64,000 nucleotides of DNA from Clostridia bacterium (GCA_017436245.1 JAFSDN010000088.1:10075-74074), one strand, 5' to 3'; shown: positions 28,442-48,369, counted from the stretch's first letter. Notes: generated by a model not told the origin, from the letters alone. Program-made: numbers and translations.

Positions 28442-31400
28442 ATGAAAAAGGCACAATATTTTTTGATGACATTGGTATTTGTAATAAACCTGATTACTTT
28501 TCCGGTTTTTGCAGATGATTCGTTTTCGGGCAGAGAGGTGCTTTTCGGGAGCGAGTTTGACAGCTCGGATGAAGTGGACTCTCAGCGAGGTTACACTTCG
28601 GTTGAGGTAAGCGATGGAGTTGCTCAGTTTGTTTACAATCAGAACGCTTCAAATTATATGTATTCAAAAACCTTTGAGGTTGCTGCCGAAGAATGTGATA
28701 TGGTTGCAATAAGAATCAAAAGTCAGGTTGATATGGATACGGTGAAGTTCTATTACACGACAGATGCAGAGCCCGATGCCAGCTCGGACAAGGTTATTAA
28801 CTTTTCGGTTGCGGCATCGGAAGAATGGCAGACCGTGACATTGAATCCTTCCAATGAAGAAAAATGGACAGGAACCGTAAACCGTTACAGACTTACATTT
28901 GATAAGCAAGCGGCAAATACTGTGGAAATAGATTATGTGAGATTCTACGGTGCTGATTCAGAAAATGCAGACAGTGTAATCTGGCCTCAGGCTGATGAGC
29001 TGTACCCCGAACGTAAGCTGCTCAGAAGCAACGAGTTCAACAGTATGTCGGAGCTTGATGTATGGCGTGACGGCTATACATCGGTTACGGTGAAGGACGG
29101 ATATGCACAGTTTAGCTATAAACAGGGGACTTCAAACTATACATATTCGGGAACCTTCAGTATTCCTGCCGATGATTGCGACACAGTTGCAATAAAAATA
29201 AAAAGCGTAGTTGATTTGAGTGCGGTGAATTTTTATTATATGACCGATTCAGAACCCAATGCAAGCGAAACAAAGGTAATTAACTTTGCTGTGCCCGCAT
29301 CGGAGGACTGGCAGCTTATAACCCTTGATACATCGGACGAAGCAAGATGGAAGGGAAATATCACACGTTATCGCTTCAGCTTTGCGGCACCGGGCGACAA
29401 TACTGTGAAAATTGATTTTGTGAGATTTTACAGCAAGGTTTTTCCTGCCTACACCGAAGACGAAAGACAGATTTCCTATGACTTTGATGCGATTAATGAA
29501 GCAGACGGATTTTTGGGAAATGAGAATGTTTCGGACGTTGTGGCATCTGAAGGCGAGCTTTGGGCGAGAGTTATCGGTGCGGATTCCTGTTTTACGGCAT
29601 TGGCTGATTATGAAGCAAAATGTGAGGACATTCCGAGACTTCATATTGCGTATGAAAACAACACCAACGGAACTGCGGGAAAACTGTATTTCACCACCGA
29701 AGAAAATCCCGATTTCAGCGAAGAATGTTTCTTTGCCTTTGAAATATCGGAGAACTCACCGGTTGACTGTGTGATTGATACGGTTGAAAATCCCAACTGG
29801 AAAGGCAAAATCACAGGCTTGCGCTTTGTACCTACTGACGGTGAAGGCTATGTGAAAATTGACTTTTTGCGCCTTGAAAAATTCCCGTGCCAGATTGTTG
29901 TCAGAAACGGTAATGTTGAAATAAGCGGCAATCTTTACGGTATGGCAGGAAAGAACATCGGCTTCTCGGTAAATGATGAAGAAGGGGAAGTTTACAGCGG
30001 AACAGCTCAGACCGATGCTGACGGTGCATACACACTTTCCTTTTCACTTGATAATGCACCCTTTGAACCAATTGTATATAACCTTGAAATCATCGGAGAC
30101 GAGATTGACGGAATATATAAAAGGAAGATTCTGTATGTTTCAGAAGATTATGTGAGCCACGTGATTGAAAAAATAAATGAGGCAAAGAGCAATGAGGATT
30201 GGGAAGAATTGCAGAGTCTCATTGAAGATAATTACGGTGTTTTGTCGCTGAAATGTGAGTTTTTTGAAGATTTTTCTGCAAAGGGCTTGTACCTTGACGA
30301 GCTGTATGCTCTTGTGGTAAGTGACGAAGCCGTGGAGGGCTTGACAGACATTGAAGACCAGCTTGATGAGGCTGTGGTTGGAGTCCGGATAAACCACATG
30401 ACTCCGGAGGAATGGATAGCTGCCGTTGATGAATATGACGAGTATCTGAACTTCAAGACCTTGGTAATATATGAGGTGTACAGCAAGGCAACGGATTCTG
30501 TCAAAGCAGAAATTGCAAAAAGAATGGCTGACAGCAGTTACAATGATTTTGAAGAGGCAAGATTTGAGTTCCGTGAACAGAACATTCTTGTGGGACTTCG
30601 CCGTGCTGTTGGCTGGAAGGATGTAAAAGAAATTATTGATGCCAATGCAGACTTCATTGGAATTGATTTGGATAAGCTGGACAAGGTGAAGAGCGAATCG
30701 GACGTATACCGACGCCTGACAGAAAAGAACTTCTCAAAAATTGAGGAGGTTGAAACAGCCTTTGATGATGCAATTGAGGCTCAGATTGACAAGGAAAAAC
30801 CGTCGGGCTCAGGCGGCTCAGGTGGCTCAGGCGGTTCGGGCGGCAGAGGCTTTGGCGGCGGAGCGGCTTCTGTAAATGCTCCTGTGACGAATCTGAACAA
30901 TTCCCAAAAGGAAGAGGCATCGGCTGATGTGTTTACAGACCTGAACGGCTATGACTGGGCAAAAGAGGCAGTTGGTGCATTGTATGCCCAAAAGATTATC
31001 AACGGCATGGGCAACGGACGTTTTGCACCGTCTGACAGCGTCACCCGTGAAGAATTTGTGAAGATGCTTGTTTTGAAAAGGAAATTAACACTTTCAAATG
31101 ACGCTTCATTTGGCGACGTGGCAAGAGATATGTGGTATGCGCCGTATATCGGTGCTGCGGTGAAAGCCGGAATAACAAAGGGTCAGGGAACTGCCTTTGG
31201 TGTTGGACAGCTTTTGACCCGTCAGGATGCGGCAGTTATGCTTGCAAGAGCCTTTGGAATAAGCGGAGCTGAAAGCTCAATGAATTTCACTGACAATGCT
31301 GAAATTGAGGATTATGCCACAGAGGCGGTGAACCTTTTGACTCAGGCAGGAGTCTTTACGGGCTATGAGGACGGTTCGTTCCGACCCGATGCAAGCCTCA

Positions 31401-31450
31401 GCAGAGCAGAAGCTGCTGTGATTATATTCAGAATTAACGAAAGGATGTAA
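28442..31450 (+). CDS. Secreted SLH-anchored protein with three copies of an unassigned beta-sandwich-like module
   Basis: 1002 aa with signal peptide ...FPVFA/DD. It has three tandem ~150-aa modules ending WTGTVNRYRLTFD..VEIDYVRFYG, WKGNITRYRFSF..VKIDFVRFYS and WKGKITGLRFVP..VKIDFLRLE. These are followed by an Ig/CarboxypepD_reg-like segment, an acidic helical region, a GSGGSGGSGGSGG linker and a C-terminal SLH triad (FTDLNGYDWAKEAVGALYAQKIINGMGNGRFAP...). Confidence 0.8.
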   Translation: MKKAQYFLMTLVFVINLITFPVFADDSFSGREVLFGSEFDSSDEVDSQRGYTSVEVSDGVAQFVYNQNASNYMYSKTFEVAAEECDMVAIRIKSQVDMDTVKFYYTTDAEPDASSDKVINFSVAASEEWQTVTLNPSNEEKWTGTVNRYRLTFDKQAANTVEIDYVRFYGADSENADSVIWPQADELYPERKLLRSNEFNSMSELDVWRDGYTSVTVKDGYAQFSYKQGTSNYTYSGTFSIPADDCDTVAIKIKSVVDLSAVNFYYMTDSEPNASETKVINFAVPASEDWQLITLDTSDEARWKGNITRYRFSFAAPGDNTVKIDFVRFYSKVFPAYTEDERQISYDFDAINEADGFLGNENVSDVVASEGELWARVIGADSCFTALADYEAKCEDIPRLHIAYENNTNGTAGKLYFTTEENPDFSEECFFAFEISENSPVDCVIDTVENPNWKGKITGLRFVPTDGEGYVKIDFLRLEKFPCQIVVRNGNVEISGNLYGMAGKNIGFSVNDEEGEVYSGTAQTDADGAYTLSFSLDNAPFEPIVYNLEIIGDEIDGIYKRKILYVSEDYVSHVIEKINEAKSNEDWEELQSLIEDNYGVLSLKCEFFEDFSAKGLYLDELYALVVSDEAVEGLTDIEDQLDEAVVGVRINHMTPEEWIAAVDEYDEYLNFKTLVIYEVYSKATDSVKAEIAKRMADSSYNDFEEARFEFREQNILVGLRRAVGWKDVKEIIDANADFIGIDLDKLDKVKSESDVYRRLTEKNFSKIEEVETAFDDAIEAQIDKEKPSGSGGSGGSGGSGGRGFGGGAASVNAPVTNLNNSQKEEASADVFTDLNGYDWAKEAVGALYAQKIINGMGNGRFAPSDSVTREEFVKMLVLKRKLTLSNDASFGDVARDMWYAPYIGAAVKAGITKGQGTAFGVGQLLTRQDAAVMLARAFGISGAESSMNFTDNAEIEDYATEAVNLLTQAGVFTGYEDGSFRPDASLSRAEAAVIIFRINERM

Positions 31451-31452
31451 GT

Positions 31453-34095
31453 GTGATGCGAATGAGTTTTGGTATGAGAATTGTTGCTTCGGTTTTGGTT
31501 TTTGTGCTTTTTGTATCTTGTTTGGGCGTTATGGCAGAGGATATTTATACCGAATCTGATTTGTCCGACTTCAAGGAGAATGTTCGGTTTTTGACTGCCT
31601 TTGATTTGGTTGACAGTAAGGGCAGAGAGGCGGCAACAACCGTTAAACGTGCTGACTTTGCCGAAATTATGATTAAGTATCTGGGTTATGACAACATGAT
31701 ATATGACGGAGAGCTTTTTTCGGATGTTGCTGACAGAAAAAGTGCTGTGTATACCATGGTTCAGCTTGGCTTGATAAACGGATACCCCGACGGGAGCTTT
31801 CGTCCCGACGACAATGTGATGTATGAAGAAGTGGTCAAGGTTTTGGTTACGGCATTGGGCTATCATATGAAGGCAGAGGCTGAAGGCGGTTATCCCCACG
31901 GTTATCTGATGTGTGCATCCACAACCAAGCTCACAGAGGACACCGACGGAGGACTTGGCTCAATTCTTACATATTTTGATTTTGTGCAAATGCTGGTTAA
32001 TGGAATGTCGGTTGACCTGATGGAGCAAAGCATCAGCTCGGACAACGTGACATACACCGTGACACCCGGCAACACATGGCTGAAACAACGTTTTATGGCG
32101 GAAAAACGCCGTGGAATTGTTACCGGAACAAAGGGTGTGGACCTGAACGAGCAGAGCAAGACATGGGAAACGACAATCACTGTTGATAATGTTATTTATA
32201 AAATTGAAGAAGATTGTGAGCATCTTGTTGGCTGTTATGTTGAGTTTTATCCTGATAACGAAAACTATATCAGATATATAAAGGAGCTGGACAACACAAA
32301 ATTTGTGTTTACGGCAGAAGAAATTCAGAGTTATTCGGACAAAACCTATGAGGTGTATGACATTGCGGCAAACAAGGAACGCAAGTATACGCTGGCATCG
32401 GATGCGTATGTCGTATTCAACGGCAGTTCGGCAGAAAGCCTGACCATTGAGGACATGATTCCAAAGTACGGAACCGTGACCCTCATCAACAACGATAAGG
32501 AAAGTGCTTTTGACGTTGTTATTATTGAGAGTTACGACATTTATGTGGTAAAAAATGTGGATGCTGAGGACAAAAGAATTTATTATGAAAATTCGGACGG
32601 AGAATTTCTTGACTTTGCAAAGGCAGAGAGATTGAGTATTGCAGATTCAACGGGCAAGGAGATTCTCTTTGAAAAGATTCCTGCATCAGCGGTTCTGAGA
32701 GTTAGTTTTTCAAAGGACGGCACAGCGGCAAAAATAATTATCAGCCAGAGTCGTGTTAACGGCACGGTTACAAAGATTGTAAGCGACGGTGCGGACAGCA
32801 GTGTGTTTATTGATGATGTGCCGTATAAAATTGCACAAACCGTGTTCCCATTGGAAAAATGCAAAATCGGCATGAGCGGAACATTCAGACTGGATTCGGA
32901 AGGTCTCATTGTTAAGTTTGAGGAATCAGCAGACAAATATTCGGTTGGCTGGTTGCTTTCGGCAGGGATTGAGGAGGGCTTTAATCAGCCCTTAAAGCTG
33001 AGAGTGTTTGATGTTTCGGGACAGATTCTTGTTCTGAATACGGCAAAAAAGGTTAACATTGACGGATTAAAGGGCAGAAATTATGCAGAAGTTCAGGAAA
33101 TTCTGAAAAAAGGCACAAACAGCATTATGCAGCAGATGATACGCTTCAAGCAAAATGCTTCGGGCGAGGTTTATGAAATTGACACGCCATATAACAATGC
33201 TCCTGCTCTGGGCGACGGTTATCTGTCGGCAAAGCCCGAAAACGGCGAAAGTGAGTATGGCTTCAGACTCATTTATTCGGGAAGTCTGGGTTATTATGCA
33301 AGGCTCAATACCTTGGGCGGAAGAATAAATGTTTCAGGCAATACACCGATTATAAATATTTTTGGCGATGATGAAAGAGACTGGAAAGCAACAACCGTTG
33401 CAGGACTTACCGACACCAGAGGCTACAACATCAAGGCATATTCATTTGGTACTGACGAAAGATTTGCAAGTGTGATTTTTATTAGCGAAAGTATGTCGGG
33501 CGGAAATGCAAGAGGCGTTATTTCAGGTGTTGAAACCGTCCTTGATATTGACGGAATTCCTGAATATGAATTTGTTGTTCAAACACAAACACACGGCACT
33601 TTGCATTTGCGTTCCAAAGAAAATGTTGCAAAACCTTATAAAGCCGATGCAAGTAACACAAAGAAGTATGCAATTGAAGTCGGCGACATTGTTGAGTGTA
33701 CATTTACGGGCAACAATGCAGATTCCTTTGCGATGATTTACAAGTATAGTACGGGTGAGCTTCCTGCAGGATATACAAGTTCGCCGGGAATAGGTCCGGG
33801 AGAAGCTCATGAAAGATATTCCTTTGGTACAGTATACTCTCAGGAAAAAGGCTATATCAATATCACAAATGTGGATTTGGCAGGCGGAGCTGTTCCCACG
33901 CAGGAACAGCTTGAGTCACATTGCTGGTCGGCATTTACGATGATGAAGGTTGAAGAGGTCCGTGGCGAAGTTAAGGTGACAAATTCGGTGACAGCGGCGG
34001 ATATTCTGGATTATAAAGCTGCCGGAAGTGCGGCATCAAAAGCATTTGTTGTGACAAACTGGGAATTCCCGAGATTTATTGTTATTTATGAATAG
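31453..34095 (+). CDS. SLH-domain surface protein, paralog of the 21684-24548 product
   Basis: 880 aa with a signal peptide and N-terminal SLH repeats (FSDVADRKSAVYTMVQLGLINGYPDGSFRPDD). It shares a GGYPxGY motif and colinear downstream blocks with the other protein (e.g. AYVVFNGSS...KYGTVTLINNDKESAFDVVII versus PVYIYNGKF...KTGNLILLDTDVNNVYDIVFV). The start is GTG 31453 or ATG 31456. Confidence 0.8.
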   Translation: MMRMSFGMRIVASVLVFVLFVSCLGVMAEDIYTESDLSDFKENVRFLTAFDLVDSKGREAATTVKRADFAEIMIKYLGYDNMIYDGELFSDVADRKSAVYTMVQLGLINGYPDGSFRPDDNVMYEEVVKVLVTALGYHMKAEAEGGYPHGYLMCASTTKLTEDTDGGLGSILTYFDFVQMLVNGMSVDLMEQSISSDNVTYTVTPGNTWLKQRFMAEKRRGIVTGTKGVDLNEQSKTWETTITVDNVIYKIEEDCEHLVGCYVEFYPDNENYIRYIKELDNTKFVFTAEEIQSYSDKTYEVYDIAANKERKYTLASDAYVVFNGSSAESLTIEDMIPKYGTVTLINNDKESAFDVVIIESYDIYVVKNVDAEDKRIYYENSDGEFLDFAKAERLSIADSTGKEILFEKIPASAVLRVSFSKDGTAAKIIISQSRVNGTVTKIVSDGADSSVFIDDVPYKIAQTVFPLEKCKIGMSGTFRLDSEGLIVKFEESADKYSVGWLLSAGIEEGFNQPLKLRVFDVSGQILVLNTAKKVNIDGLKGRNYAEVQEILKKGTNSIMQQMIRFKQNASGEVYEIDTPYNNAPALGDGYLSAKPENGESEYGFRLIYSGSLGYYARLNTLGGRINVSGNTPIINIFGDDERDWKATTVAGLTDTRGYNIKAYSFGTDERFASVIFISESMSGGNARGVISGVETVLDIDGIPEYEFVVQTQTHGTLHLRSKENVAKPYKADASNTKKYAIEVGDIVECTFTGNNADSFAMIYKYSTGELPAGYTSSPGIGPGEAHERYSFGTVYSQEKGYINITNVDLAGGAVPTQEQLESHCWSAFTMMKVEEVRGEVKVTNSVTAADILDYKAAGSAASKAFVVTNWEFPRFIVIYE

Positions 34096-34105
34096 GAGGA
34101 ATAAG

Positions 34106-37100
34106 ATGAAAAGGCTTTTCAAAAAGATAGTTTTATTTTGTTTGACAGCGTTGCTCCTGATTGAAAATCTGCCTGTTTTTGCGGATATCCAAATCAGCGG
34201 CGAACAGGATGATATGACGGTTAAAACCTATATTTATGACAGTTTTACCTTCCCCATTTCTTTGAACGGAGATGTACGCTATTCGGGTTGGGATTTGAAC
34301 CGAATCGGAGGCGAATCTGTTGAGGGAGTTCCAATGCGTTTGAAGGACACAAGTCCCATTTTGCCCGTTGAGGCAAAGCGTGAGCTGGAACCTATTACCT
34401 TTGGTGAGGTTGAACTTGATTTTCATATTTCGGCAATCAGCCTGATGAATGATTCGTATTTCGGATTACGTACAGGAACAGACTGTGCCATAAATTTTGG
34501 TTTTGACAAGGAATATCTCTGGACGGAGGGTTCGGGAGAACGTCAGAACCTGCTTCGCTACAAAACAGGTGTTACCTATGCAGTAAAAACGCTTATTCAT
34601 ATGGAAAAAAAGACCTTTGATGTGAGTGTTGACGGCAAGCTGTGTGCGGAGGGAGTGCCCTTTGATGAGGAGTTTTTTGATAACTTCTTTGTGAGCACAG
34701 GCAACGAAACCGTGGGACAGCTTAATCTGGAGTACATATATATTACCCGCGGTTACTGGGTTAATGAGCTGTTTAATATGAGCCATTCCTGCCTGCCCCA
34801 TGACTGGAGCCTGAAAACTGTGGATGCTTTGGGCAGACCCATTGCGTCGGACGAAGGCGTGCAGGGCAAGGGCTACTTTGAGGTGGTGAGTCGAAACGGC
34901 AATACGGTGCTTTCAAAGAGCTTTGATGCACAAAGTGATGACTTCACCTTTGATTTTCAGATGAATATTCCAAAGTTCCGTGACGGTATTGAAATTGCGT
35001 TGAAGGGCGGCGATGAAGAAGTCCTGAAAATCTCAGCCGACAAAACAAGCTTTTATTATACCGACAAAGCAGGTAACCCTGTGAGCTTTTATGATTATAA
35101 GGACAACATTTGGTATACCTTCAAGGCAAAGGTGAATTTCAGCAGAAAAACCTTTGATTTGAAGCTCAACGGAAAGGTGATCAAGGAGAATATTCCTCTC
35201 AATGCATCGGCGGCTTCGGTTGATACCCTTGAAGTATCAAGCAAAAAGTCTGAAAACTCATTCTTCTTTGACAATGCAAAGCTTTATCCTCAGGAGCATT
35301 TTGAGGATTATGTTCCCGAACCCAAGGTTGCCGAGAGCAAGGGCGTTGACATTGGTATGCAGCATTGTCCTTTGTGGTGGAACGGCTATCATGCAGGATG
35401 GGACTGGGTTAATGATTCGGATTACCGTGTTCCTGTAAACGGCTTTTATGATGAGTCAAGCCCCGAGCTTTGGGACTGGGATCTCAAGTATATGTCCGAG
35501 CATGGTGTGGACTTTATCTGGTACTGCTGGTATAAGATGGCAAATGAGGGTGACCCCATTCACCCTGCTGATGACCAGCCTGCTTTGCAGGAGGGATATT
35601 TTGAAGCAAAGTATTCCGACAAGGTGAAGTTTGCCCTGATGTTTGAAAACGGTTATGTTAAAGACCCCTTTGGCATTGACCAGGCACTTAACACGGAAAG
35701 GTTTTTGGAGGATGTTGCACGTTACTGGCTTGAATATTTCTTCAAGGACCCCCGCTATTATACAGTTGAGGGCAGACCCTTAATCAGCTTCTATGACCCG
35801 TGGAATTTCAGTGCATATTTTGGCGGTCATGGAAAACAGTTTATAGAAAGTCTTGGGGATATGTGTGAGGCAGAAGGCATCGGCAGACCCCTTGTTGTGT
35901 TCTCTCACAGAGGAATGGCGTATTCCGATATGGCGGCAATGAATCCCGACAGCGCGGTGTACTGGTACAGCATGGGTTCATGGCCCAACGATGCAATAGA
36001 TGCAAGTCTTACCAATTACAAAAATGTAACAGGCGCAGGCTTGGGTTATATTCCCACAATCTCCAACGGCTTTGACAGATATGCATGGAATCAGCATGAA
36101 ACAGGTGTATTTTATGATAACGACGACATGAAGCGTGCTCTGGAAAGATACCGTGATGAGATTCTGACCTTGCCCAACAAGTTCAAAACTCCCATTGTGA
36201 TGCTTAGTACATGGAACGAATACGGCGAGGGGCATATCTTTGCACCCACAACATGGAACGGCTTTGGTTATCTTGACGCTGTGCGTGAGGTCTTCACCGA
36301 TGCAGGCGAGCATGATGATATTACTCCAACTGAGCATCAGCTTGACCGTTTCAACAACAACTATCCCCACAACAGAAATACTCTTGACCGTGAGGTGGAT
36401 GTGGGCAGAGTTCCCGATGAAAATGCCTATGAAAAATATAAATGGGATTTTGATGATTCAAATAAACCCGGCTGGAAGGTAACGGTTGCAAATGATTCGT
36501 CCATTACGGACGGGGTGCTGAAGATGACTGCAGGAGGCGGTCAGGTTCAGCTTTCACTCACCGACAGCGGCATTGACACAGCAGAGGTAACTCACATAAA
36601 GCTGAGAGTGAAAAACAGCGGTTCATGCGACAACACAAAGGTTCAGATTGCAACTAATTTTGAAAAGGTTCATGCGGGACACGCAATTAACAACGGCATT
36701 ACTCCCAACATGGAGGATTTCACGGATTATTACATTTCAGTGGGCAAGTATCCTGCTTTCTGGCGAGGAATCCTTGAAAGCCTGACAATTGATTTCAATG
36801 CAACAAAAAAGGGCGATACCGTTGAAATTGATTCCATTGCATTTATGGCGTTGCCTCAAGAGGGTGATGTGACCCTTTCAATAAACAAGTATACCGAAAA
36901 GGTTAATGCAGTTTTCCGAGACGGCTTGCCAATGCTTCATCTCCGCAAGGCTGTTGATGCACACGGAACCTTCAGCGAGGCAGACCCCAAAATCCATTGG
37001 GAGGCTGAAACTAACAAGGTGTATGTGCGAAAGGGTGCATCTGTCCTTGAATTTGTGCCGGGTGAGGCAGAGGTAATCTGCAACGGCAAAGCGTATAATC

Positions 37101-38173
37101 TGCCCAACTCTTCCGAGCTTATTGACGGAGTTACATATGTTAATGCAGAAATAATCTCTCTTGCATTCAGCGAAAATGTTGTCTGGGATGAGGAGCAAAA
37201 GATTATGACTCTAACCGACAACACAAAGGAAGTGGAGCTGGTTCGTCCCGTAAGCGAGCGCAAGCTCCTCTGGTCGCATGAGATGGACAGCATGACAGGA
37301 ATAACATATTATCTGAATATGAATTCAGCAGGTATGTCTGACGGCGTATGGAACTATGTTACAACAACGGGCGATCCGCAGTTTTATACATCTATTACTC
37401 CAAACCTTAAGTGTGAGGAAGCAAAGTACATAGCAATTGGTTTGAAGGTTGATAAATCATCCATGATGGACTTCTACTTTGAAACTGTTGAAAACCCCGG
37501 CTGGTCGGAGGGCAAGGTGTTCAATTTGGGAGGTTCGGTTTCATCTGATATTGTGGAGTATGTCATTGATACATCACTTTCCAACTCGTGGACAGGAAAC
37601 CTAAAGACCATAAGATTTGATGCATCTTCTATGCGTGACACAAACTGTTCGGTTGACTATATCAGAATATATGGTGATTATGAATATGAGCTGACTCAGG
37701 AGGACATTATTCAGCGTTACGACACACGTGTGACTGCAGGTGATGAAATTATCTGGAATTTTGACCTGAACAATAACCGTGACGGCTGGGTTGGCAGCAA
37801 ATCCTTGGCAAATCTCACAACCGCTGCAGGGCGACTTAATGCGGATATAATCGACAAAAAGCCTTTCTTTGAAACAGCGGCTCAGAGCCTTGAACTTTCG
37901 GCGGATGAGTACAAAACTCTGGAAATCTGTTTGAAGAACACAAGCGGCGGCAAGACGGCAAAGGTATATTTCATAACAGAAGATTCAAAGGATTGGTCGG
38001 AAGACAAGAGCTTTGAAATTTCACTTTTGCAGAACGATATTGCAGGGGTTGTTTACAAGATAAATGCTTTTGAAAACGAGGCATGGAAAGGCGGCCTGAA
38101 AGGACTGAGAATTGTTCCCACAGATGTTACGGAAGGTTCGGTGTGTATTGATTTTGTAAAGCTGAAAAAGTGA
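34106..38173 (+). CDS. Giant secreted multidomain protein with a WbsX/GH99-like TIM-barrel domain
   Basis: The start was set at ATG 34106 (MKRLFKKIVLFCLTALLL..VFA/D) after AGGAGGA. The N-terminal region of about 400 aa looks beta-sandwich-like (LamG/ConA-like, low confidence). The central domain, about nt 35340-36300, has the motif order CPLWWNGYHAGWDW...GFYDESSPE...EHGVDFIWYCWY...STWNEYGEGHIF...GFGYLDAV, which matches my recollection of PF14307 (WbsX)/GH99-like proteins. Three copies of the W-x-G...ID-[YF]-[IV]-R module and one Cu-amine-oxidase-N-like stalk segment follow. Confidence 0.75.
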   Translation: MKRLFKKIVLFCLTALLLIENLPVFADIQISGEQDDMTVKTYIYDSFTFPISLNGDVRYSGWDLNRIGGESVEGVPMRLKDTSPILPVEAKRELEPITFGEVELDFHISAISLMNDSYFGLRTGTDCAINFGFDKEYLWTEGSGERQNLLRYKTGVTYAVKTLIHMEKKTFDVSVDGKLCAEGVPFDEEFFDNFFVSTGNETVGQLNLEYIYITRGYWVNELFNMSHSCLPHDWSLKTVDALGRPIASDEGVQGKGYFEVVSRNGNTVLSKSFDAQSDDFTFDFQMNIPKFRDGIEIALKGGDEEVLKISADKTSFYYTDKAGNPVSFYDYKDNIWYTFKAKVNFSRKTFDLKLNGKVIKENIPLNASAASVDTLEVSSKKSENSFFFDNAKLYPQEHFEDYVPEPKVAESKGVDIGMQHCPLWWNGYHAGWDWVNDSDYRVPVNGFYDESSPELWDWDLKYMSEHGVDFIWYCWYKMANEGDPIHPADDQPALQEGYFEAKYSDKVKFALMFENGYVKDPFGIDQALNTERFLEDVARYWLEYFFKDPRYYTVEGRPLISFYDPWNFSAYFGGHGKQFIESLGDMCEAEGIGRPLVVFSHRGMAYSDMAAMNPDSAVYWYSMGSWPNDAIDASLTNYKNVTGAGLGYIPTISNGFDRYAWNQHETGVFYDNDDMKRALERYRDEILTLPNKFKTPIVMLSTWNEYGEGHIFAPTTWNGFGYLDAVREVFTDAGEHDDITPTEHQLDRFNNNYPHNRNTLDREVDVGRVPDENAYEKYKWDFDDSNKPGWKVTVANDSSITDGVLKMTAGGGQVQLSLTDSGIDTAEVTHIKLRVKNSGSCDNTKVQIATNFEKVHAGHAINNGITPNMEDFTDYYISVGKYPAFWRGILESLTIDFNATKKGDTVEIDSIAFMALPQEGDVTLSINKYTEKVNAVFRDGLPMLHLRKAVDAHGTFSEADPKIHWEAETNKVYVRKGASVLEFVPGEAEVICNGKAYNLPNSSELIDGVTYVNAEIISLAFSENVVWDEEQKIMTLTDNTKEVELVRPVSERKLLWSHEMDSMTGITYYLNMNSAGMSDGVWNYVTTTGDPQFYTSITPNLKCEEAKYIAIGLKVDKSSMMDFYFETVENPGWSEGKVFNLGGSVSSDIVEYVIDTSLSNSWTGNLKTIRFDASSMRDTNCSVDYIRIYGDYEYELTQEDIIQRYDTRVTAGDEIIWNFDLNNNRDGWVGSKSLANLTTAAGRLNADIIDKKPFFETAAQSLELSADEYKTLEICLKNTSGGKTAKVYFITEDSKDWSEDKSFEISLLQNDIAGVVYKINAFENEAWKGGLKGLRIVPTDVTEGSVCIDFVKLKK

Positions 38174-38190
38174 GTGTTAAGATTTAAAAG

Positions 38191-38330
38191 GACTACCCCT
38201 CAGTCACCTTGCGGTGACAGCTCCCCTGACAAGGGGAGCCGGGAGGACTTACGGTGTTTCAGCTTGCCTCCCCTTGTAAGGGGAGGTGGGTTGCGGAGCA
38301 ACTCGGAGGGTCTTGACGTAACTGAGGGAG
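38191..38330. repeat. GC-rich multi-stem intergenic element
   Basis: An outer 8-bp pairing, ccctcagt (38196-38203) with actgaggg (38321-38328), encloses four hairpins. These are gtcacc-ttgc-ggtgac (38203-38218), gctcccct-gaca-aggggagc (38220-38239), cctcccct-tgta-aggggagg (38267-38286) and gttgc-gga-gcaac (38290-38302). Confidence 0.7.
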
Positions 38331-38396
38331 TTCGCAATAAATAAGCAAAAAAATAAAATAAATATAAAAATTTTATACAAAAAGGAGTAGAAATTT

Positions 38397-40094
38397 ATGA
38401 AAAAACGTATTATTTCTCTAACCCTGACACTTTTGATGGTGTGCAGCTTGTTCACCATCGCACCCGTATCTGCGGCTGCTGGTGTAACGGCAACCTTGCC
38501 TGACGGCACAGTTGTTGAAAACTTCACCAAGGATTACAGCAGACACAACAATGTTCTCAATTTCTCCTTTGAAAAGAACATTGACACTGAAGAGCTTTCG
38601 AACGAAAGCGTAACCGTAAACGGCGTTGCTGCGGCAAAGGTAATTGCCACAGGAAATAACTCCATTCAGGTTGACATGGGAACACTCAGAAACATCACAC
38701 GTTACCGTGTTGAATTCCCCGGTGTTCTGGACATGGAATGGAATCCTGTTGGCGGACAGTTTGTGTTCACAACCGGAACAGGCGTTATCCGCGGAATGGA
38801 ATTCACATGGGATTCTATGCCAATAAATCCTGCCTATAATACGGTTGACTACGGTATTGAATCCTGTGAGCATAATAAGGCTGACGGAACAGTTACCTTT
38901 AAAACAACAAAAGGAACATGGGGAACTTTGTTTGAAACATATGTTAACGCATTTGGCGAAAATATTGCAACAAATGACATCAAGCAGATTGTTATGCGTG
39001 CGAAGACAAACGTTACGGGTAACTTCTATACTTACTTTGTTCTGGGCGACAAGACATATGTTACAGGCGACCATGACAGAGAGGTTCGTGCAGGTTGGAC
39101 AATTCAGGCAAGTGATGAATATCAGGAATATATCCTTGATGCAAGTGCTTTGAATCAGGAGGTTTGGCCCAATCAGACCTTAAATCTTATAAGAATGCAG
39201 ATGCCCGAAAATGCAACGGTTGACATTGACTACATCAGACTTGTTACTTATGATTATGAAACAAACGGCTATCTTGCAGACTGGGATTTCACCAACTTCC
39301 AGAACCCGATAGGCTTGGGTACTGTTAAAAACAGCAATGTACCTGAAGGTATACTGAGAGAAGACGGTATTTATTTTGAAGCAGCAACATGGGGCGGCCC
39401 CATTGGTACTGCAAACGCATATCAGATGAATATCAATCCTGTAACCGTTGCTAAGTTTGAATATCATGCACTTGATACATTCGGTATTGAAAATCTGGGA
39501 ATATATATTGTGAGAGCCGGTGAATTGACAGCTCCGCCTCCTGTTAACGAAAATCAGCGCTTCCAGCTTCAGCAGTTGGGCGGTGGCGGAAACTGGCACA
39601 CTTATAATCTGACACCTGAACACGCAACATACCCCAACAATGACTGTAACTGGCTGTTCTTCTTTACAAATAAAGTACCGGATATGCCGGCATGGGATTT
39701 TCTTATCAAGTACATAAAGATGTACCCCGAAAACTGGGTTGAAAATCCTGTGAATGTTCCTGTTACAACATATGAGCTTGTGAGCGGATTTGAAACAGCA
39801 GATGAAGCTGTACTTTCAGGAAGCGTTCCTGCAGGCAGTGTAACAGCAGTTACAGGCGGTTTCTATAACACCGATTCTGCAAAAAAGGATGTAACATTAG
39901 TTGTTGCGCTTTACAAGGATAATGCACTTGTAGACGTAAAAATGAACAAACAGTCAATCACGGGTCATGGATACCTCTCTCAGCTTGACGCAACAGTTGA
40001 AGTACCCGACGAGGGTTATGAGGTTAAGGCATTCCTCTGGGACGGCGCAACACCCATGTATGATGTACTTACAAAGGACAACAGCAGTTTGTAA
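38397..40094 (+). CDS. Secreted protein, paralog of the C-terminal third of the 43737-48332 product
   Basis: 565 aa with signal peptide ..TIAPVSA/AAG. It is colinear, with no indels detectable by eye, with the last ~533 aa of the 1531-aa protein. It contains an Ig-like segment (VTVNG...RYRVEFPG), the W...VDIDYIRLVTY module, a second variant module and a C-terminal Ig-like domain (VTLVVALYKDNALVDVKM...VKAFLWDG). Confidence 0.8.
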   Translation: MKKRIISLTLTLLMVCSLFTIAPVSAAAGVTATLPDGTVVENFTKDYSRHNNVLNFSFEKNIDTEELSNESVTVNGVAAAKVIATGNNSIQVDMGTLRNITRYRVEFPGVLDMEWNPVGGQFVFTTGTGVIRGMEFTWDSMPINPAYNTVDYGIESCEHNKADGTVTFKTTKGTWGTLFETYVNAFGENIATNDIKQIVMRAKTNVTGNFYTYFVLGDKTYVTGDHDREVRAGWTIQASDEYQEYILDASALNQEVWPNQTLNLIRMQMPENATVDIDYIRLVTYDYETNGYLADWDFTNFQNPIGLGTVKNSNVPEGILREDGIYFEAATWGGPIGTANAYQMNINPVTVAKFEYHALDTFGIENLGIYIVRAGELTAPPPVNENQRFQLQQLGGGGNWHTYNLTPEHATYPNNDCNWLFFFTNKVPDMPAWDFLIKYIKMYPENWVENPVNVPVTTYELVSGFETADEAVLSGSVPAGSVTAVTGGFYNTDSAKKDVTLVVALYKDNALVDVKMNKQSITGHGYLSQLDATVEVPDEGYEVKAFLWDGATPMYDVLTKDNSSL

Positions 40095-40228
40095 GAACAG
40101 AGTGTGGAATGACTACCCCTTCTCCTCAAGGAGAAGACTACAAAGAAATGTAAAGTTTAAATTGTTACAAAGGAGTAGGGGTAGTTGATAACAAATTTTA
40201 AATTTTATGATTAAGGAGGAGACAAACC

Positions 40229-41701: not shown

Positions 41702-41724
41702 ACAGTATTGATTTTGGAATAGGG

Positions 41725-42696: not shown

Positions 42697-42711
42697 AAAG
42701 GAGAGAATGTT

Positions 42712-43635
42712 TTGAACAGTAAAAAAATCAAGGGACATTTAATTCAAAAATCAGCAAGTGAAAGGTTTTTTTCTATCATTTCGCACATTTTTTTGATTAT
42801 TGTCAGTTTGTTGTGCGTTTGTGCCTTTTTAATAGTGCTTGGGTCATCCTTTCAAAGTCAGAGGGAAATTATGGAGAGAGGTTATGCCATAATTCCAAGG
42901 CAGTTTTCCCTGGAAGCATACAAAATGGTTTTGACCTTCCCGAAACAAATTATTGACGCATATATTGTCACAGCCGTGACAACCCTTTTGGGAACATTTA
43001 TCGGAGTTTGTATTTCGGCAGGGGCAGGCTATGTTCTGTCCCGACAAACTTACAGATACAAAAATATTATTGCGTTTTTGGTGTTCTTTTCCATGCTGTT
43101 TAACGGTGGTCTTGTTCCCAGTTATATTCTGATTACTCAGTGGCTTGGGCTCAAGGACAGCATATGGGCTTTGATTCTGCCACTTGTGACAAGCGGCTGG
43201 TACATTATTCTCATGAGGGGATTCTTTCAGAGCGTACCGGGTGCAATGATTGAGTCGGCAAGAATTGATGGGGCTTCGGAATTCAAAACCTTCTTTCAGA
43301 TTGTTTTGCCTGTTTCAAAGCCGGTTCTTGCAACAATATCACTCTTTTATGTGCTTGCTTATTGGAACGACTGGTATTTGTCCCTTTTGTATGCAACTGA
43401 TGAAAGCCTTTACAAGCTGCAGTATTTGCTGATGCAGATATTGAAAAAGGCAGAATTTTTGAATTCAGAGGCAGGAAAGCTGTTGCAGGGAACAGGTGTG
43501 GAACAAATGGAAGCTCCAACGCTCAATGTGCGTATGGCGGTCTGTGTTCTCGCTGCAGGACCCGTTCTGGTTATTTTCCCATTCTTCCAGAAGTATTTTG
43601 TCAAGGGAATAACCGTGGGCTCTGTAAAGGGTTAA
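42712..43635 (+). CDS. ABC sugar transporter permease (LplC/MalG-like)
   Basis: 307 aa. A TTG start follows RBS AAAGGAGAG. The EAA loop is IESARIDGASEFKTFFQIVLP. Confidence 0.85.
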   Translation: MNSKKIKGHLIQKSASERFFSIISHIFLIIVSLLCVCAFLIVLGSSFQSQREIMERGYAIIPRQFSLEAYKMVLTFPKQIIDAYIVTAVTTLLGTFIGVCISAGAGYVLSRQTYRYKNIIAFLVFFSMLFNGGLVPSYILITQWLGLKDSIWALILPLVTSGWYIILMRGFFQSVPGAMIESARIDGASEFKTFFQIVLPVSKPVLATISLFYVLAYWNDWYLSLLYATDESLYKLQYLLMQILKKAEFLNSEAGKLLQGTGVEQMEAPTLNVRMAVCVLAAGPVLVIFPFFQKYFVKGITVGSVKG

Positions 43636-43646
43636 ACCAAATAAAA

Positions 43647-43706
43647 TCGCTTATAGCATTATGTTGTTATCCGGCCATAACATTTATTGCTATAAGCGAA
43701 TTTTTT
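43647..43706 (+). terminator. Long hairpin plus T-tract downstream of the ABC permease genes
   Basis: The outer perfect 12-bp arms are tcgcttatagca/tgctataagcga. The inner region pairs imperfectly around ccggcc. The hairpin is followed by ttttttacattttt. Confidence 0.7.
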
Positions 43707-43736
43707 ACATTTTTATACAAAGAAGGGAATAAAAAT

Positions 43737-46700
43737 ATGAAAAAATTCGTTGCACTTTGCTTACTAATATCAATGTTCGCCTGCTTTTTGCCAATGAATG
43801 TGGCGGCTGATGTGGACGATGACCCTTGTGCCAAAACCTTTCTGGATACCTCCATGCTTGTGAATCAGGCTGACAAAAACGGTAATACTGTTATTTCGGG
43901 CTGGGACCTTAACACGGCAGGGGGAACAATTCATCCAAGAGCCTTTTTGCAGATGGTTGACACAAGCACAGAGTTCCCTGTTGAGGCTGTTCGTGCAATA
44001 GATGATATTGAATGTGGCGAGGTTACTTTTGAATTTTATGTTTATCTGGACAAAAGTATGCCGGGGCTTTCCATTCGTCTTGCAAAAGGTTTTTCAAAAC
44101 AGATGTCATTTGATTTTGAAGCGGAAGGACTGTATTTATCGGGCAACAATGGTGAACGGGTCTTTGTTGCTGAAACGCCAATAGGTTCTTTGTTTGGGGT
44201 GAAAGCCATTGTTGATATGGACAACGGCTGCGCAACTGTGTATGTGGACGGAATACGTGCGGTGACGGATGCTCCGATTTCGGTGGGTACTATTAATAAG
44301 GTTATTGTGAGCACAGGTGCGGAAACGGTTGGTGCTTTTATACTGCAGACAATCCGTATTTATCGGGGTTATGCATTGAACGAGTTTTTTACCGCAAATA
44401 ACGGTCAGTTCCCTTCGGAATGGGATATTGATGTACCCTCGGGAGTAATTGCAAAGCCTGCTCTTGACTCAACAAGCGGCGACATAACTCTGTCAAAGAG
44501 CTTTGACCCGCAAAGGGGAAATCTTGTTTTTGAATTTCAGACACGTCTGCCAAAAAAGCGGAGCGGTGTTTCATTTACGCTGAAAAACGGAAGTGATTCG
44601 GTGCTTTCGTTAAAAGCCAAAGAAAACGGATTTTATTTTGGAGATTCTATATTTTTAGGTGCGTACAAAGAGGATATATGGCAGCATTTCAGAGTGAAAA
44701 TTGATACGGAATCAGGAAATGCCGATATACAGATAAACGGTAAGCTTGTGAAAGAAAATGTCAGTATTCCAAAGAACAAAGCGGTTGACTCCTTTGAAAT
44801 ATATGTTGCCAAGGCAACAAACGGAAAGGTTTTTGCAACAGACTTTTTGCTGTATGAGGAGGAAATACCCGCTGATTATCCATCATCGCCCGTAAAGGCT
44901 GATTCGGAGGGGGTTGCAGTTGGTGTTCAGACCTGTCCTTTGTGGACTGAAGGACGGCATGTTGGCTGGGACTGGATTAATTCTGCCGAGCCAAGGATTC
45001 CGCTGCTGGGCTTTTATGACGAGTCATCACCTGAGGCGGTTGACTGGCAAATGAAGTATATGGCAGAGCACGGCATTGACTTTCAGTGGTGCTGTTGGTT
45101 TATGCCGGGCACACCGGGAAATCCCATAAAGGATATTGATGCGTCAAGATATTTGCACAACGGTTATTTTAATGCAAGGTATTCGGATGCTGTGAAGTTT
45201 GCAATCATGTGGGAAAATGCAGGAACGTACACATGGACGACCGACCCTGCATATAACCGCGAAATGTTCCTCAAGCACATTGCTCCCTTCTGGATTGAAT
45301 ATTATTTCAAGGATTCGCGGTATTTCAAGTCGGGCGGACATCCCATTGTGGGTATATACAGCTATGATAAGTTTATGACAGCCTTCAAGGACAGCACAAG
45401 CGGTTATTCGGAAATACTCAGTATGATGAATGAGTTCAAGCAGATGTGCGTTGATGCAGGTGTTGGCGCTCCCTTTGTGGTTTTGCAGGAATATCCCATT
45501 GCCTCTGACTTCGGCAACGAGGGAGCACATTATGCAAAACGGAATCAAATGGGCTTTGACGGGTTTTATACATATGGTTATAACACAAGCTGCTGGACTG
45601 AACGTCAAAAAGAGGCTCACCTGATGGGACGGGACAATGCATCGCAGCTGCGGTTTATTCCCACCTATCACAGCGGCTTTGACACAAAGGCATGGGACGG
45701 AGCTTCGGGCATAACGCTGACACCACAGCAGTTTGAAGACCTGCTCCGTGACGGCAAGGAGAACTTTTTGCCAACGTTGTCCTATACGAATCTTGACGAA
45801 CCCATTGTTATGCTGGCATCCTGGGACGAGCATGGCGAAGGTCACGCAATTATGCCAAACAAGGGATACGGTTTTGGGTATCTTGATGCGGTGAAAAATG
45901 TTTTTGCACCCGGTGAGCATACCCATGCAGAGCCAACAGAACAACAAAAGGAACGTATTTCCACGGCATATCCCACAGGACGCAAGGTGCCTTTGCGTGA
46001 GAAAATCACAGACCTTGGAGACGAGCAGAATCATACAGTTGTAAAGGGGTGGTATTTTGATTCGGACTCGGAGGGGTGGACAGGCGCTTCTTGGGAAAAT
46101 GGTTGCCTGAAAGCCACATCGACCATTGGGTTAAATAATGCAGATGTGGAAGCAATTGATGCGGATTACATTCGCTTCAAAGTGAAAAACCAATCCGATT
46201 CGTACTCGGCAACATTTACATACACAACTAACTTTTCTGAAAATAACAGCTCAAGGATGATATATATTGGCGGAAAAAGCTCTGATTTCACAGAAATATC
46301 GGTGCCTGTTTCAAAGCACGCTGACGATTGGCGGGGCAATATAGAAAAACTTAATGTTGTATTTAACGGTATTGGTGATGGGCAATGCGTGCTTATAGAT
46401 TCGATTGAATTTTTGAAAACATCACAAAATGGCAATATGATTGGTGTTGACGGTGTTTGGCTGGAAAGCGGCCTGATTCAAAGGCACGAAAAAAAATATC
46501 TGCCATTTGCGGAAGCTAAAAGTCTTTTTGGATTCAAGCATTACATAACCGAGGACGGAACATTTTGCTTTGAGGGCAAAAACGCTGTGGGAAAAGAAGC
46601 CCTTGCGGAAAGTGAGGCATTATTTGAGAACGAGGGGATTTTGTACTTGAGTGAAGATGTGTTTATGTCGCTGACTGATGAAAAGCCGCTGTTTCAGTTG

Positions 46701-48332
46701 GATTTAACCAATTTGGAAGCAGGGGGAGCATATCTGCCCGACGGCACGCAGATTGAGAATTTTGCAAAGAATTACAGCCGACACAACAATGTTCTTATCT
46801 TTGCATTTGACCAAAATTTAGATGGCCAATCCTTTGAACCTCAAAGTGTGACATTGAACGGTTCACCTGTTGCTTCGGTTGAGGCTTTTGGAAATAACGG
46901 AATCAAGGTTGATTTGGGTGTGCTTTCAAACATCACACGTTACCGTGTTGAATTCCCCGGGATTAAAACGGCTGATTTTGAACCAGTGGGCGGACAGTTT
47001 GTGTTCACAACAGGAACGGGTATTGTTGGAGGAATGGAATTTACAAACAACACTTCTCCGTTGAATTCTGCTTATATGACAGGCGATTACGGTATTGAAT
47101 CATGTGAACACAATGCCGCAAACGGAACAATAACAATAAAAACAACAAAAGGTACATATGGCACAGCAATTCAGACATATGCCAATGCCTTTGGCAAAAA
47201 AATTCCCACAAATGATATTAAGCAGATTATTATGCGTGCAAAAACAAATGTGACAGGAAACTTCTATACATATTTTATGCTTGATGACAAGGAAATCCCT
47301 GTGGGAAACAACGACCGGGAGGTTCGGGCAGGCTGGACAATTCAGGCAAGTGACGAGTATCAGGAATATATCCTTGATGCAAGTGCTTTGAATCAGAGTG
47401 TATGGCAGGACAAAGCGTTGAATGTAATCAGAATGCAGCTTCCTGAAAACGCAACGGTTGACATTGACTACATCAGATTGGTTACCTATGACTACGAAAC
47501 AAAGGGCTATCTTGCAGACTGGGATTTCACAAATAAGCAGAATCCAATTGGCTTGGGAACAATCAGAAATGTGAATGTTCCTGAACCGGAATTGAGAGAT
47601 GACGGTATATATTTTGAAGCCGCAACATGGGGCGGACCAATGGGAATTGCCAATGGAAATCAAATGCTTTTCAATCCTTCAAGCATAGGAAAGTTCGAGT
47701 ATACTGCGCTGGATACTTACGGCATAGAAAACTTTGGAATATATCTTTTGAAAAGAGGAGATATAATAACACCGCCGAGTGTTTCTGTGAATGAGCGTTT
47801 TCAGCTGCAACAGCTATCGGGTGGCGGCAGATGGAACACATACACTCTCACACCCGAACATGAAGAATACCCAAACAATGACTGCAACTGGTTGTTTTTC
47901 TTTACAAACAGAAAGTCCGGTCAGACCTACTGGGATTTCCTTCTTCAGGACATAAAGATTTATCCCATAAACTGGGTTGAAAATCCTGTGAACGTTCCTG
48001 TGGCAACATATGAGCTTGTGAGCGGATTTGAAACCGTGGACGAGGCTGTTCTTGACGGATGTGTGCCTATGGGTGACGTGACAGCAGTTGCAGGCGGATT
48101 TTATAACACAGGCTCAGCACCCAAGGACGTAACTTTGGTTGTTGCTCTTTACAAGGACAATGCCCTTGTGGACGTCAAAATGAATAAGCAGACAATCATG
48201 GGCAAGGGCTATCTTTCTCAGCTTGATGTAACCATAACCGTGCCCGGCGAGGGCTATGGGGTGAAGGCGTTCCTTTGGGACGGTGCAATGCCTATGTGTG
48301 ACGTGCTTACAAAGGACAACAGCAGTTTGTAA
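43737..48332 (+). CDS. Giant secreted multidomain protein with a WbsX/GH99-like TIM-barrel domain (paralog of the 34106-38173 product, with an extra C-terminal block)
   Basis: 1531 aa with signal peptide ..PMNVAA/D. The N-terminal region is colinear with the 34106 protein (ISGWDLNTAGGT versus YSGWDLNRIGGES). The central domain, about nt 44910-45910, has CPLWTEGRHVGWDW...GFYDESSPE...EHGIDFQWCCWF...ASWDEHGEGHAI...GFGYLDAV. Next come a W-x-G module (WRGNIEKLNVVF..VLIDSIEFLK), a stalk-like segment and a C-terminal ~533 aa duplicated from or to 38397-40094. Confidence 0.75.
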   Translation: MKKFVALCLLISMFACFLPMNVAADVDDDPCAKTFLDTSMLVNQADKNGNTVISGWDLNTAGGTIHPRAFLQMVDTSTEFPVEAVRAIDDIECGEVTFEFYVYLDKSMPGLSIRLAKGFSKQMSFDFEAEGLYLSGNNGERVFVAETPIGSLFGVKAIVDMDNGCATVYVDGIRAVTDAPISVGTINKVIVSTGAETVGAFILQTIRIYRGYALNEFFTANNGQFPSEWDIDVPSGVIAKPALDSTSGDITLSKSFDPQRGNLVFEFQTRLPKKRSGVSFTLKNGSDSVLSLKAKENGFYFGDSIFLGAYKEDIWQHFRVKIDTESGNADIQINGKLVKENVSIPKNKAVDSFEIYVAKATNGKVFATDFLLYEEEIPADYPSSPVKADSEGVAVGVQTCPLWTEGRHVGWDWINSAEPRIPLLGFYDESSPEAVDWQMKYMAEHGIDFQWCCWFMPGTPGNPIKDIDASRYLHNGYFNARYSDAVKFAIMWENAGTYTWTTDPAYNREMFLKHIAPFWIEYYFKDSRYFKSGGHPIVGIYSYDKFMTAFKDSTSGYSEILSMMNEFKQMCVDAGVGAPFVVLQEYPIASDFGNEGAHYAKRNQMGFDGFYTYGYNTSCWTERQKEAHLMGRDNASQLRFIPTYHSGFDTKAWDGASGITLTPQQFEDLLRDGKENFLPTLSYTNLDEPIVMLASWDEHGEGHAIMPNKGYGFGYLDAVKNVFAPGEHTHAEPTEQQKERISTAYPTGRKVPLREKITDLGDEQNHTVVKGWYFDSDSEGWTGASWENGCLKATSTIGLNNADVEAIDADYIRFKVKNQSDSYSATFTYTTNFSENNSSRMIYIGGKSSDFTEISVPVSKHADDWRGNIEKLNVVFNGIGDGQCVLIDSIEFLKTSQNGNMIGVDGVWLESGLIQRHEKKYLPFAEAKSLFGFKHYITEDGTFCFEGKNAVGKEALAESEALFENEGILYLSEDVFMSLTDEKPLFQLDLTNLEAGGAYLPDGTQIENFAKNYSRHNNVLIFAFDQNLDGQSFEPQSVTLNGSPVASVEAFGNNGIKVDLGVLSNITRYRVEFPGIKTADFEPVGGQFVFTTGTGIVGGMEFTNNTSPLNSAYMTGDYGIESCEHNAANGTITIKTTKGTYGTAIQTYANAFGKKIPTNDIKQIIMRAKTNVTGNFYTYFMLDDKEIPVGNNDREVRAGWTIQASDEYQEYILDASALNQSVWQDKALNVIRMQLPENATVDIDYIRLVTYDYETKGYLADWDFTNKQNPIGLGTIRNVNVPEPELRDDGIYFEAATWGGPMGIANGNQMLFNPSSIGKFEYTALDTYGIENFGIYLLKRGDIITPPSVSVNERFQLQQLSGGGRWNTYTLTPEHEEYPNNDCNWLFFFTNRKSGQTYWDFLLQDIKIYPINWVENPVNVPVATYELVSGFETVDEAVLDGCVPMGDVTAVAGGFYNTGSAPKDVTLVVALYKDNALVDVKMNKQTIMGKGYLSQLDVTITVPGEGYGVKAFLWDGAMPMCDVLTKDNSSL

Positions 48333-48369
48333 GTGCAAAATTGAGAAAATATATTCAGGAGGAATAAAA

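Follow-up and report, generated by a model that had tools for sequence, protein, structure and literature searches.

Closest described domains and the locus under study

Carbohydrate-binding modules (CBMs) of the CBM4/CBM22 type and of CBM86 occur as appendages of glycanases that gut or soil bacteria secrete. In the megatron protein of the roseophage vB_DshS-R4C (hereafter R4C), residues 482-629 were named a 'carbohydrate-binding domain' on the basis of a topology common with CtCBM11 in a backbone-only cryo-electron microscopy model, and the authors proposed that this domain serves in capsule attachment (PMC10276861). Here, a window of 64,000 nucleotides from a Clostridia bacterium (GCA_017436245.1, JAFSDN010000088.1:10075-74074) was analysed, in which four proteins encoded between positions 28,442 and 48,332 carry a recurrent module of about 145 residues. 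The predicted fold and the make-up of these proteins suggest, with moderate confidence, that it is an autonomously folding beta-jelly-roll from a large uncurated family, and most likely a non-catalytic CBM.

Nine full-length copies of one module

The first-pass annotation of this DNA had described a repeat of "at least 8 copies in 4 proteins", recognized by a W-x-G...R and V-x-ID signature at the C-terminal end. This repeat is real, and all the motifs quoted were found in the four open reading frames (ORFs) named; nine, the count of that annotation's own list, is the number of copies (3+3+1+2 over four ORFs of the + strand). They are about 135-165 residues long, ~145 being typical. They are listed below, the carrier proteins being named by the first nucleotide of their ORF and the bit score being that obtained with an independent family hidden Markov model (HMM).

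28523..28957, + strand: copy A1, 28442 protein residues 28-172, subtype I, 106.5 bits
28997..29440, + strand: copy A2, 28442 protein residues 186-333, subtype I, 109.8 bits
29453..29887, + strand: copy A3, 28442 protein residues 338-482, subtype II, 109.3 bits
36401..36862, + strand: copy B1, 34079 protein residues 775-928, subtype III, immediately C-terminal to the GH99-like catalytic domain, 86.2 bits
37241..37687, + strand: copy B2, 34079 protein residues 1055-1203, subtype I, 102.9 bits
37721..38170, + strand: copy B3, 34079 protein residues 1215-1364 (C-terminus), subtype II, 119.1 bits
38769..39266, + strand: copy C1, 38397 protein residues 125-290, subtype IV, the most divergent, 45.2 bits
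46029..46430, + strand: copy D1, 43737 protein residues 765-898, subtype III, immediately C-terminal to the GH99-like catalytic domain, 68.1 bits
47007..47504, + strand: copy D2, 43737 protein residues 1091-1256, subtype IV, 46.7 bits

These nine copies are one homologous family over their full length. Indeed, MAFFT aligned them across ~140 columns, thus beyond the short C-terminal motif, with common features that include an F-[DN] start, an invariant Gly, a D..I.I(K/R).K strand, a (F/Y)(Y/F).T(D/E) motif, an invariant Trp (W-x-G) and an invariant Asp (I-D-Y-I). The strand and the (F/Y)(Y/F).T(D/E) motif correspond to the upstream patterns already noticed at first reading, and both lie within the alignment. 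Four subtypes were distinguished: subtype I with A1, A2 and B2 (54.5% identity between A1 and A2, 27-29% between B2 and either of them), subtype II with A3 and B3 (36.9%), subtype III with B1 and D1 (31%) and subtype IV with C1 and D2 (76%, the other pairs of copies ranging from 13 to 55%). By BLAST, residues 190-480 of the 28442 protein matched residues 1060-1364 of the 34079 protein (31% identity over 307 residues), along with weaker matches between the 28442 protein and residues 779-892 of the 43737 protein.

The low pairwise identity between subtypes (13-25%) could be taken as a sign that a short C-terminal motif recurs by chance, with no homologous module behind it. The probability of such a coincidence is negligible. 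The C-terminal V-x-[IV]-D-[YFS]-[IVL] motif occurred nine times among the 19 proteins of the window, always in the four carriers. The joint W-x-G...R / V-x-ID expression was found at these same nine places only among 379 six-frame ORFs of at least 60 residues (52.7k residues), and never in 200 residue shuffles. Furthermore, an HMM built from A1-A3, B2 and B3 recovered the omitted copies (D1, 26.9 bits; C1, 20.5 bits; D2, 16.5 bits; B1, 12.6 bits), the best decoy reaching 3.5 bits. With the HMM of 337 instances from other organisms, each at most 39% identical to any window copy, the nine copies matched over HMM positions ~2-148 with 45-119 bits, against 6.8 bits for the best of the 379 decoy ORFs. 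The confident fold prediction presented below also argues against a chance motif.

A tenth, degenerate copy at 39267-39731 (38397 protein residues 291-445) was considered and is not established, hhalign giving a P value of 0.007 with a probability of only 5.6%. This same stretch, next after C1 and D2, begins with 'LADWDFTN' and ends with 'FLIKYIKMYP'; it is in register with the family profile, but weakly, and may be an extra copy. Its counterpart in the 43737 protein starts from residue 1257.

Predicted fold of the module

Copy A2 was modelled by AlphaFold2 with the nine window copies as the only alignment input, which resulted in a model of 11 beta strands with a predicted local distance difference test score (pLDDT) of 91.8 and a predicted template modelling score (pTM) of 0.88. 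Foldseek comparison of this model with the PDB returned 128 matches at an expectation value (E) of 0.001 or better, and the 50 matches listed were mostly CBMs. The best folds belonged to CBM29, CBM11, CBM4, CBM86, CBM8 and CBM6, with E from 2.5e-6 to 1e-4 and template modelling (TM) scores of 0.5-0.64, and phage tailspike accessory domains were also among the matches listed. The model of the most divergent subtype, copy C1, was weaker (pLDDT 69.7, pTM 0.72) and had the same strand order as A2; it retrieved the same set of CBMs, including CBM29, the CBM from the xylanase BiXyn10A, CBM86 and CBM30. Among predicted viral structures, the closest domains were those of phage tail-fibre and tip-attachment proteins (TM 0.72-0.76). 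A beta-sandwich or jelly-roll CBM fold had been envisaged in the first-pass annotation, and the models are indeed beta-jelly-rolls with CBMs as top matches. Hence, as far as predicted structures go, the fold class can be considered as settled: a beta-jelly-roll of the CBM or galactose-binding-domain type.

A large family absent from curated domain libraries

A search of Pfam (2025 copy, 24,736 models) yielded no significant match, whether the query was the module regions of the carriers, the nine copies or 61 family instances, and NCBIfam had no match for the module. This is in line with the earlier remark that it could be assigned to no named CBM or DUF. Isolated weak Pfam matches were obtained among the 61 instances, namely Endotoxin_C in two of them (best E 5e-4), GBD_ELAPOR1 (9e-4), CBM_11 (0.014) and Mann_GBD_bact (0.024), all of which we take to belong to the galactose-binding-domain (GBD)-like clan. 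Membership in DUF5766 was rejected, as one of the 61 instances scored 18.8 bits for a cut-off of 27.4. No window copy (0/9) exceeded the gathering score of CBM_11 (PF03425), and the single family instance touched by this model, at E 0.014, lay far below the cut-off. CBM_4_9 (PF02018) and CBM6 (PF03422) were absent from the families listed for the nine copies (E up to 10); for the 61 instances (E up to 1), 25 of 38 families were listed and neither was among them. Of 35 full-length carriers, two did contain CBM_4_9, most probably as a domain distinct from the module, given that no instance in isolation is matched by it.

In PDB sequences, the nine-copy profile had no match, and searches with the full 34079 and 38397 proteins had none either. 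The 61-instance profile found one solved relative by hmmsearch, residues 488-626 of 8GTC chain M (E 2.5e-10, 43.8 bits), i.e., the phage domain only and no solved CBM. Thus, no Pfam family maps significantly onto the module and its sole PDB link is a phage domain named from its fold, in keeping with the novelty proposed at first. Judged by comparison with Pfam, NCBIfam and PDB sequences, the module is a large family absent from curated domain libraries.

The alternative would be that the module diverged strongly from within a CAZy family already described, such as CBM11, CBM29, CBM4/22 or a recent family that has no Pfam model. It would agree with CBM29, CBM11 and CBM4 being the top fold matches and with the contact of CBM_11 with one instance. 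We regard it as improbable: no CBM model of Pfam was significant on the nine copies or the 61 instances, the PDB profile search led to the phage domain, and the fold likeness is spread equally over several families (TM ~0.6, 10-16% identity), none of which stands out.

Family size, distribution and partner domains

Run against 1.84 billion representative proteins, the family profile matched 3,316 clusters (50% identity) with a cut-off of E 0.001; 1,278 of them remained at 1e-10 and 191 at 1e-30. As counted by the search itself, 2-8 stretches per protein were matched in the best 150 of these 3,316, with one exception. A stricter local HMM gave 1-8 copies in each of the 150, half of the neighbouring copies being at most 20 residues apart. 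A module ends 92 of these 150 proteins, and 114 have a signal-peptide-like N-terminus according to a simple heuristic. Searches for protein homologues with the nine-copy alignment, the 61-instance alignment or the triple-module region of the 28442 protein gave no match.

Partner domains were varied. In 35 sampled carriers, they comprised the WbsX/GH99-like domain (15), Cu_amine_oxidN1 (14), SLH (8), Big_2 (5) and a sialidase-like CBM (4), and further F5/8 type C, GDSL esterase, CBM_4_9, sulfatase, SASA, GH5, heparinase II/III, CE2 and Por_Secre_tail. The family also reaches Archaea, as illustrated by a tblastn match of a consensus-like instance on the megaplasmid of Natrinema gelatinilyticum (NZ_CP100757.1, 95107-95496; 32% identity, E 8e-12), a plasmid record that bears no annotation. 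The same kind of search in the INPHARED phages gave no match at E 0.001 or better. The first-pass annotation had taken the module as defining the system of this locus. This cannot be maintained: there are at least 3,316 clusters with varied enzyme partners and one relative in a phage baseplate protein, and a family this large, present on many other enzymes, does not define this locus.

The four carriers and the link with GH99-like enzymes

All four carriers have signal-peptide-like N-termini. They are organized as follows.

28442..31450, + strand: carrier 1, 1002 residues, non-catalytic surface protein; signal peptide, three modules, a stretch without assigned domain, a Gly/Ser linker and three SLH domains (~30932-31447)
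34079..38173, + strand: carrier 2, 1364 residues, GH99-like enzyme; signal peptide, LamG/sialidase-like CBM region, GH99-like (WbsX) domain (35264-36403), module, Cu_amine_oxidN1, two modules
38397..40094, + strand: carrier 3, 565 residues, secreted, one module
43737..48332, + strand: carrier 4, 1531 residues, second GH99-like enzyme; catalytic domain (44904-46031), module, then a C-terminal half resembling the 38397 protein and holding the second module

Pfam recognized SLH in carrier 1 over three stretches (E 2.7e-34) and no catalytic domain. These SLH (PF00395) matches lie outside the modules, the best stretch covering residues 831-872 when the modules end at residue 482. The Gly/Ser-rich linker GSGGSGGSGGSGGRGFGGG (30800-30880, residues ~787-812) stands between the domain-free region and the three SLH domains. 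In carrier 2, WbsX, Cu_amine_oxidN1 and Sialidase-like_CBM were matched. Its ORF opens with a TTG that overlaps the end of the preceding gene, and the ATG at 34106 (MKRLFKK..., signal-peptide-like) is a likelier start; the NCBI model of this protein has 1343 residues and starts 21 residues into the ORF. Carrier 3 had no Pfam, NCBIfam or PDB sequence match for any domain, and carrier 4 matched WbsX with an E of 2e-14. The N-terminal 900 residues of the 43737 protein are related to the 34079 protein (34% identity over 941 aligned positions by BLAST), and the C-terminal 547 residues of the same 43737 protein (46689-48332) share 72% identity with the 38397 protein. From these alignments, the 43737 protein looks like a 34079-type enzyme fused to a 38397-type protein, unless the 38397 protein is a split-off copy. 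The corresponding NCBI records belong to a metagenome-assembled Clostridia bacterium (locus tags IJN96_; MBQ7097679, MBQ7097680, MBQ7097684), in which the carriers are called either 'glycoside hydrolase family 99-like domain-containing protein', as is the 34079 protein, or 'hypothetical protein', as is the 38397 protein.

A catalytic-domain profile was built from the 34079 and 43737 proteins and ten homologues. Against the PDB, it matched the GH99 endo-alpha-mannosidases 4ACY (BtGH99; E 2.9e-6), 4AD1 and human MANEA (6ZDC). The WNEYGEGH motif, invariant in the 12 sequences, was aligned with FNEWHEGT of 4ACY, in the N-E-W-x-E-G region that we take to be the site of the GH99 catalytic glutamates. 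The alignment covers only the C-terminal half, and the Pfam assignment is WbsX (PF14307), not Glyco_hydro_99. For this WbsX-type branch, no member was present in PDB sequences and no characterized member was found in the literature.

In the species genomes of GTDB, 80 loci encoding such catalytic domains were compared, this alignment having provided the loci when a search with the triple-module region of the 28442 protein gave no confirmed relative. The module was present in all 56 loci of Bacillota, i.e., Clostridia metagenome-assembled genomes from human, mouse and deer guts, Lachnospiraceae, Oscillospiraceae, Paenibacillus and Cohnella, and in none of the 24 loci of other phyla, mostly Planctomycetota, Verrucomicrobiota, Armatimonadota and Bacteroidota. 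The module-free loci are as follows.

L009, L024, L028-L031, L033, L036-L039, L045, L047-L049, L052, L056, L060, L064, L072-L075, L077

A module was found downstream in the same ORF for 65 of 94 catalytic domains, starting at most 40 residues away in 63 of these 65 (median 15 residues). In the module-free loci, the ORF ends soon after the catalytic domain, mostly within ~15 residues, which indicates that the barrel does not need the module.

This distribution bears on the possibility of an 'X module', a beta-sandwich with a structural or spacing role and no ligand, which would stabilize or space the catalytic domain and push the functional parts off the cell wall. In Bacillota, a copy is always found next to the GH99-like catalytic domain, the conserved residues could belong to the core, the family loop motifs are degenerate in the window copies, and the literature on R4C, the sole solved relative, reports no binding data. 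However, GH99-like enzymes of the Planctomycetes-Verrucomicrobia-Chlamydiae (PVC) group, Armatimonadota and Bacteroidota have a catalytic fold independent of the module. In addition, the module is joined to many unrelated enzyme classes, occurs in triplicate on the enzyme-free SLH protein and is inserted peripherally in a phage baseplate protein. A pure spacer role is thus rather unlikely, though it deserves more weight than the divergent CAZy branch considered above.

Regarding the gene neighbourhood, a histidine kinase, an AraC-type regulator, an SLH triple-module protein, a 31453-like SLH protein and a GH99-like enzyme recur together in L001-L005. An ABC (ATP-binding cassette) transporter lies alongside the enzyme in 18-22 loci, Paenibacillus included. 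The 31453-34095 and 21684-24548 genes encode paralogous SLH-bearing proteins (24% identity over 674 residues), and a homologue of the former is found beside a GH99-like enzyme in L003-L005, L053 and L080. Two proteins of ~480 residues are encoded further downstream in the sugar-utilization locus (48367-49818 and 54361-55794); neither had a Pfam or PDB relative, the matches being limited to sub-threshold ones with a BT_1020-like beta-propeller and an M14 peptidase.

Proposed function of the module

Because of the CBM-type fold and the signal-peptide-like carriers, a glycan-binding role is the most reasonable reading. The glycan-binding part of the first-pass proposal is thereby strengthened at the level of predicted structure, while binding itself, and a ligand common to the carriers, are inferred. 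Under this reading, the copy adjoining each GH99-like catalytic domain and the copies downstream, with the C-terminal pair in the 34079 protein, would hold two secreted endo-glycanases on a polymeric glycan. On the cell surface, this glycan would be captured by the three copies of the 28442 protein, which is SLH-anchored and has no enzyme domain; A2 and A3 match the C-terminal pair of the 34079 enzyme, a subtype I+II pair being found on both proteins. Several copies per protein would provide avidity. The ABC transporter (40229-43635) would then import the oligosaccharides released, and expression would be controlled by the two-component pair of a histidine kinase and an AraC-type response regulator (25800-28237).

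The first-pass annotation had also mentioned surface association. As the module's own task it is unlikely; in the 28442 protein, separate SLH domains ensure it. More broadly, the module might mediate surface association or protein-protein assembly by binding the cell's own envelope polymers or an S-layer partner rather than a nutrient glycan. SLH domains on 8 of the 35 sampled family members and on two proteins of the locus would fit, as would the fusion to GH99-like enzymes only in monoderm Bacillota. Yet the two enzymes and the 38397 protein have modules and no SLH, one sampled member carries Por_Secre_tail, one match lies on a haloarchaeal megaplasmid and another in a phage of a Gram-negative host. 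We therefore attach little probability to such a role.

Several points weigh against glycan binding as the function of the module. Carbohydrate binding by members of the family is a prediction from fold, and the likeness to CBM folds is generic (TM ~0.6, identity 8-16%, no CBM family standing out). Ephrin-receptor ligand-binding and MAM domains were among the A2 matches listed, and Cry-toxin domains were matched with the C1 model. The R4C domain owes its name solely to a likeness with CtCBM11, with no binding experiment reported (PMC10276861). The best-conserved residues of the family (W-x-G, R-x-D-P, I-D-Y-I) may be structural. Two loop motifs are family-wide, G-x-D-P (D 68%, P 75%; HMM columns 42-45) and R-x-D-P (D 79%, P 76%; columns 125-128), and both are mostly absent in the nine window copies, which may differ from the bulk of the family in the role of these loops. 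The copy that follows the catalytic domain (subtype III) may be, instead of a CBM, an appendage with a structural role in the enzyme. Finally, related enzymes do not have the GH38, the GH30, the haloacid dehalogenase (HAD) hydrolase and the two downstream proteins mentioned above conserved within 10 kb, and these genes hence give little guidance on the ligand.

As regards this ligand, the hints are of a mannose-containing glycan and come from the distant GH99 relationship and from the GH38 gene nearby, with the reservation that the GH38 linkage is not conserved. An alpha-mannan deduced from the GH38 neighbour was set aside for that reason, which leaves the GH99 relationship as the remaining hint. 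Going one step further, the module could found a new large CBM family, an obligate partner of the GH99-like endo-glycanases of Bacillota, shared horizontally with a roseophage and a haloarchaeal megaplasmid and recognizing the glycan substrate of the GH99-related enzyme family. This broader proposal is tentative, and we would place it somewhat short of even chances.

Comparison with known systems

The closest counterpart is the R4C domain (8GTC chain M), which belongs to the same sequence family as the module, with the initial F, EGW, DP, YxxT and W...R-x-D in register. It has the same size and a similarly peripheral, non-catalytic place, adjoining a glycosidase-like (mannanase-like) domain. 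In contrast to the module copies, it is single, is inserted inside a tail protein of a phage of a Gram-negative host and has a His where the I-D-Y-I motif of the module has its invariant Asp. By structure, CBM29 of Piromyces equi NCP1 (1GWK, 1GWL, 1GWM) was the best Foldseek match (E 2.5e-6, TM 0.61-0.64 over ~145 residues). Like the module, it is a beta-jelly-roll of similar size that also occurs in tandem; unlike a sequence relative, it has 11-14% identity once structurally aligned and no sequence-profile link in the PDB search. CtCBM11 (1V0A, 6R31) was the second-best fold match (E 2.9e-6, TM 0.61, identity 15-16%), and the CBM4/CBM22-type and CBM86 modules (1GUI, 4MGS/4QPW, 6SGF) followed with E from 4e-6 to 2e-4. 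As for the enzymes that bear the module, the nearest family is that of the GH99 endo-alpha-1,2-mannosidases and mannanases (4ACY, 4AD1, 6ZDC), whose matched characterized structures are devoid of such a module.

This module is borne without annotation by thousands of secreted proteins, from gut Clostridia, Paenibacillus and other bacteria, which NCBI names 'hypothetical' or after another domain, and one curated model would annotate all of them. If the predicted binding is true, the family would become a new CBM family of CAZy. The module is also a possible handle on the substrate of the GH99-like (WbsX) enzymes, which always bear it in Bacillota, and the family would make it possible to test whether the R4C baseplate protein deserves its 'carbohydrate-binding domain' label. 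No new kind of system is implied: accessory beta-sandwich modules are routine on glycanases and would not surprise a specialist of carbohydrate-active enzymes. What is new is an uncurated family, and with it a candidate family of binding modules, whose kind is known and which is best placed with the beta-jelly-rolls that serve glycan-degrading proteins as accessory or binding modules.

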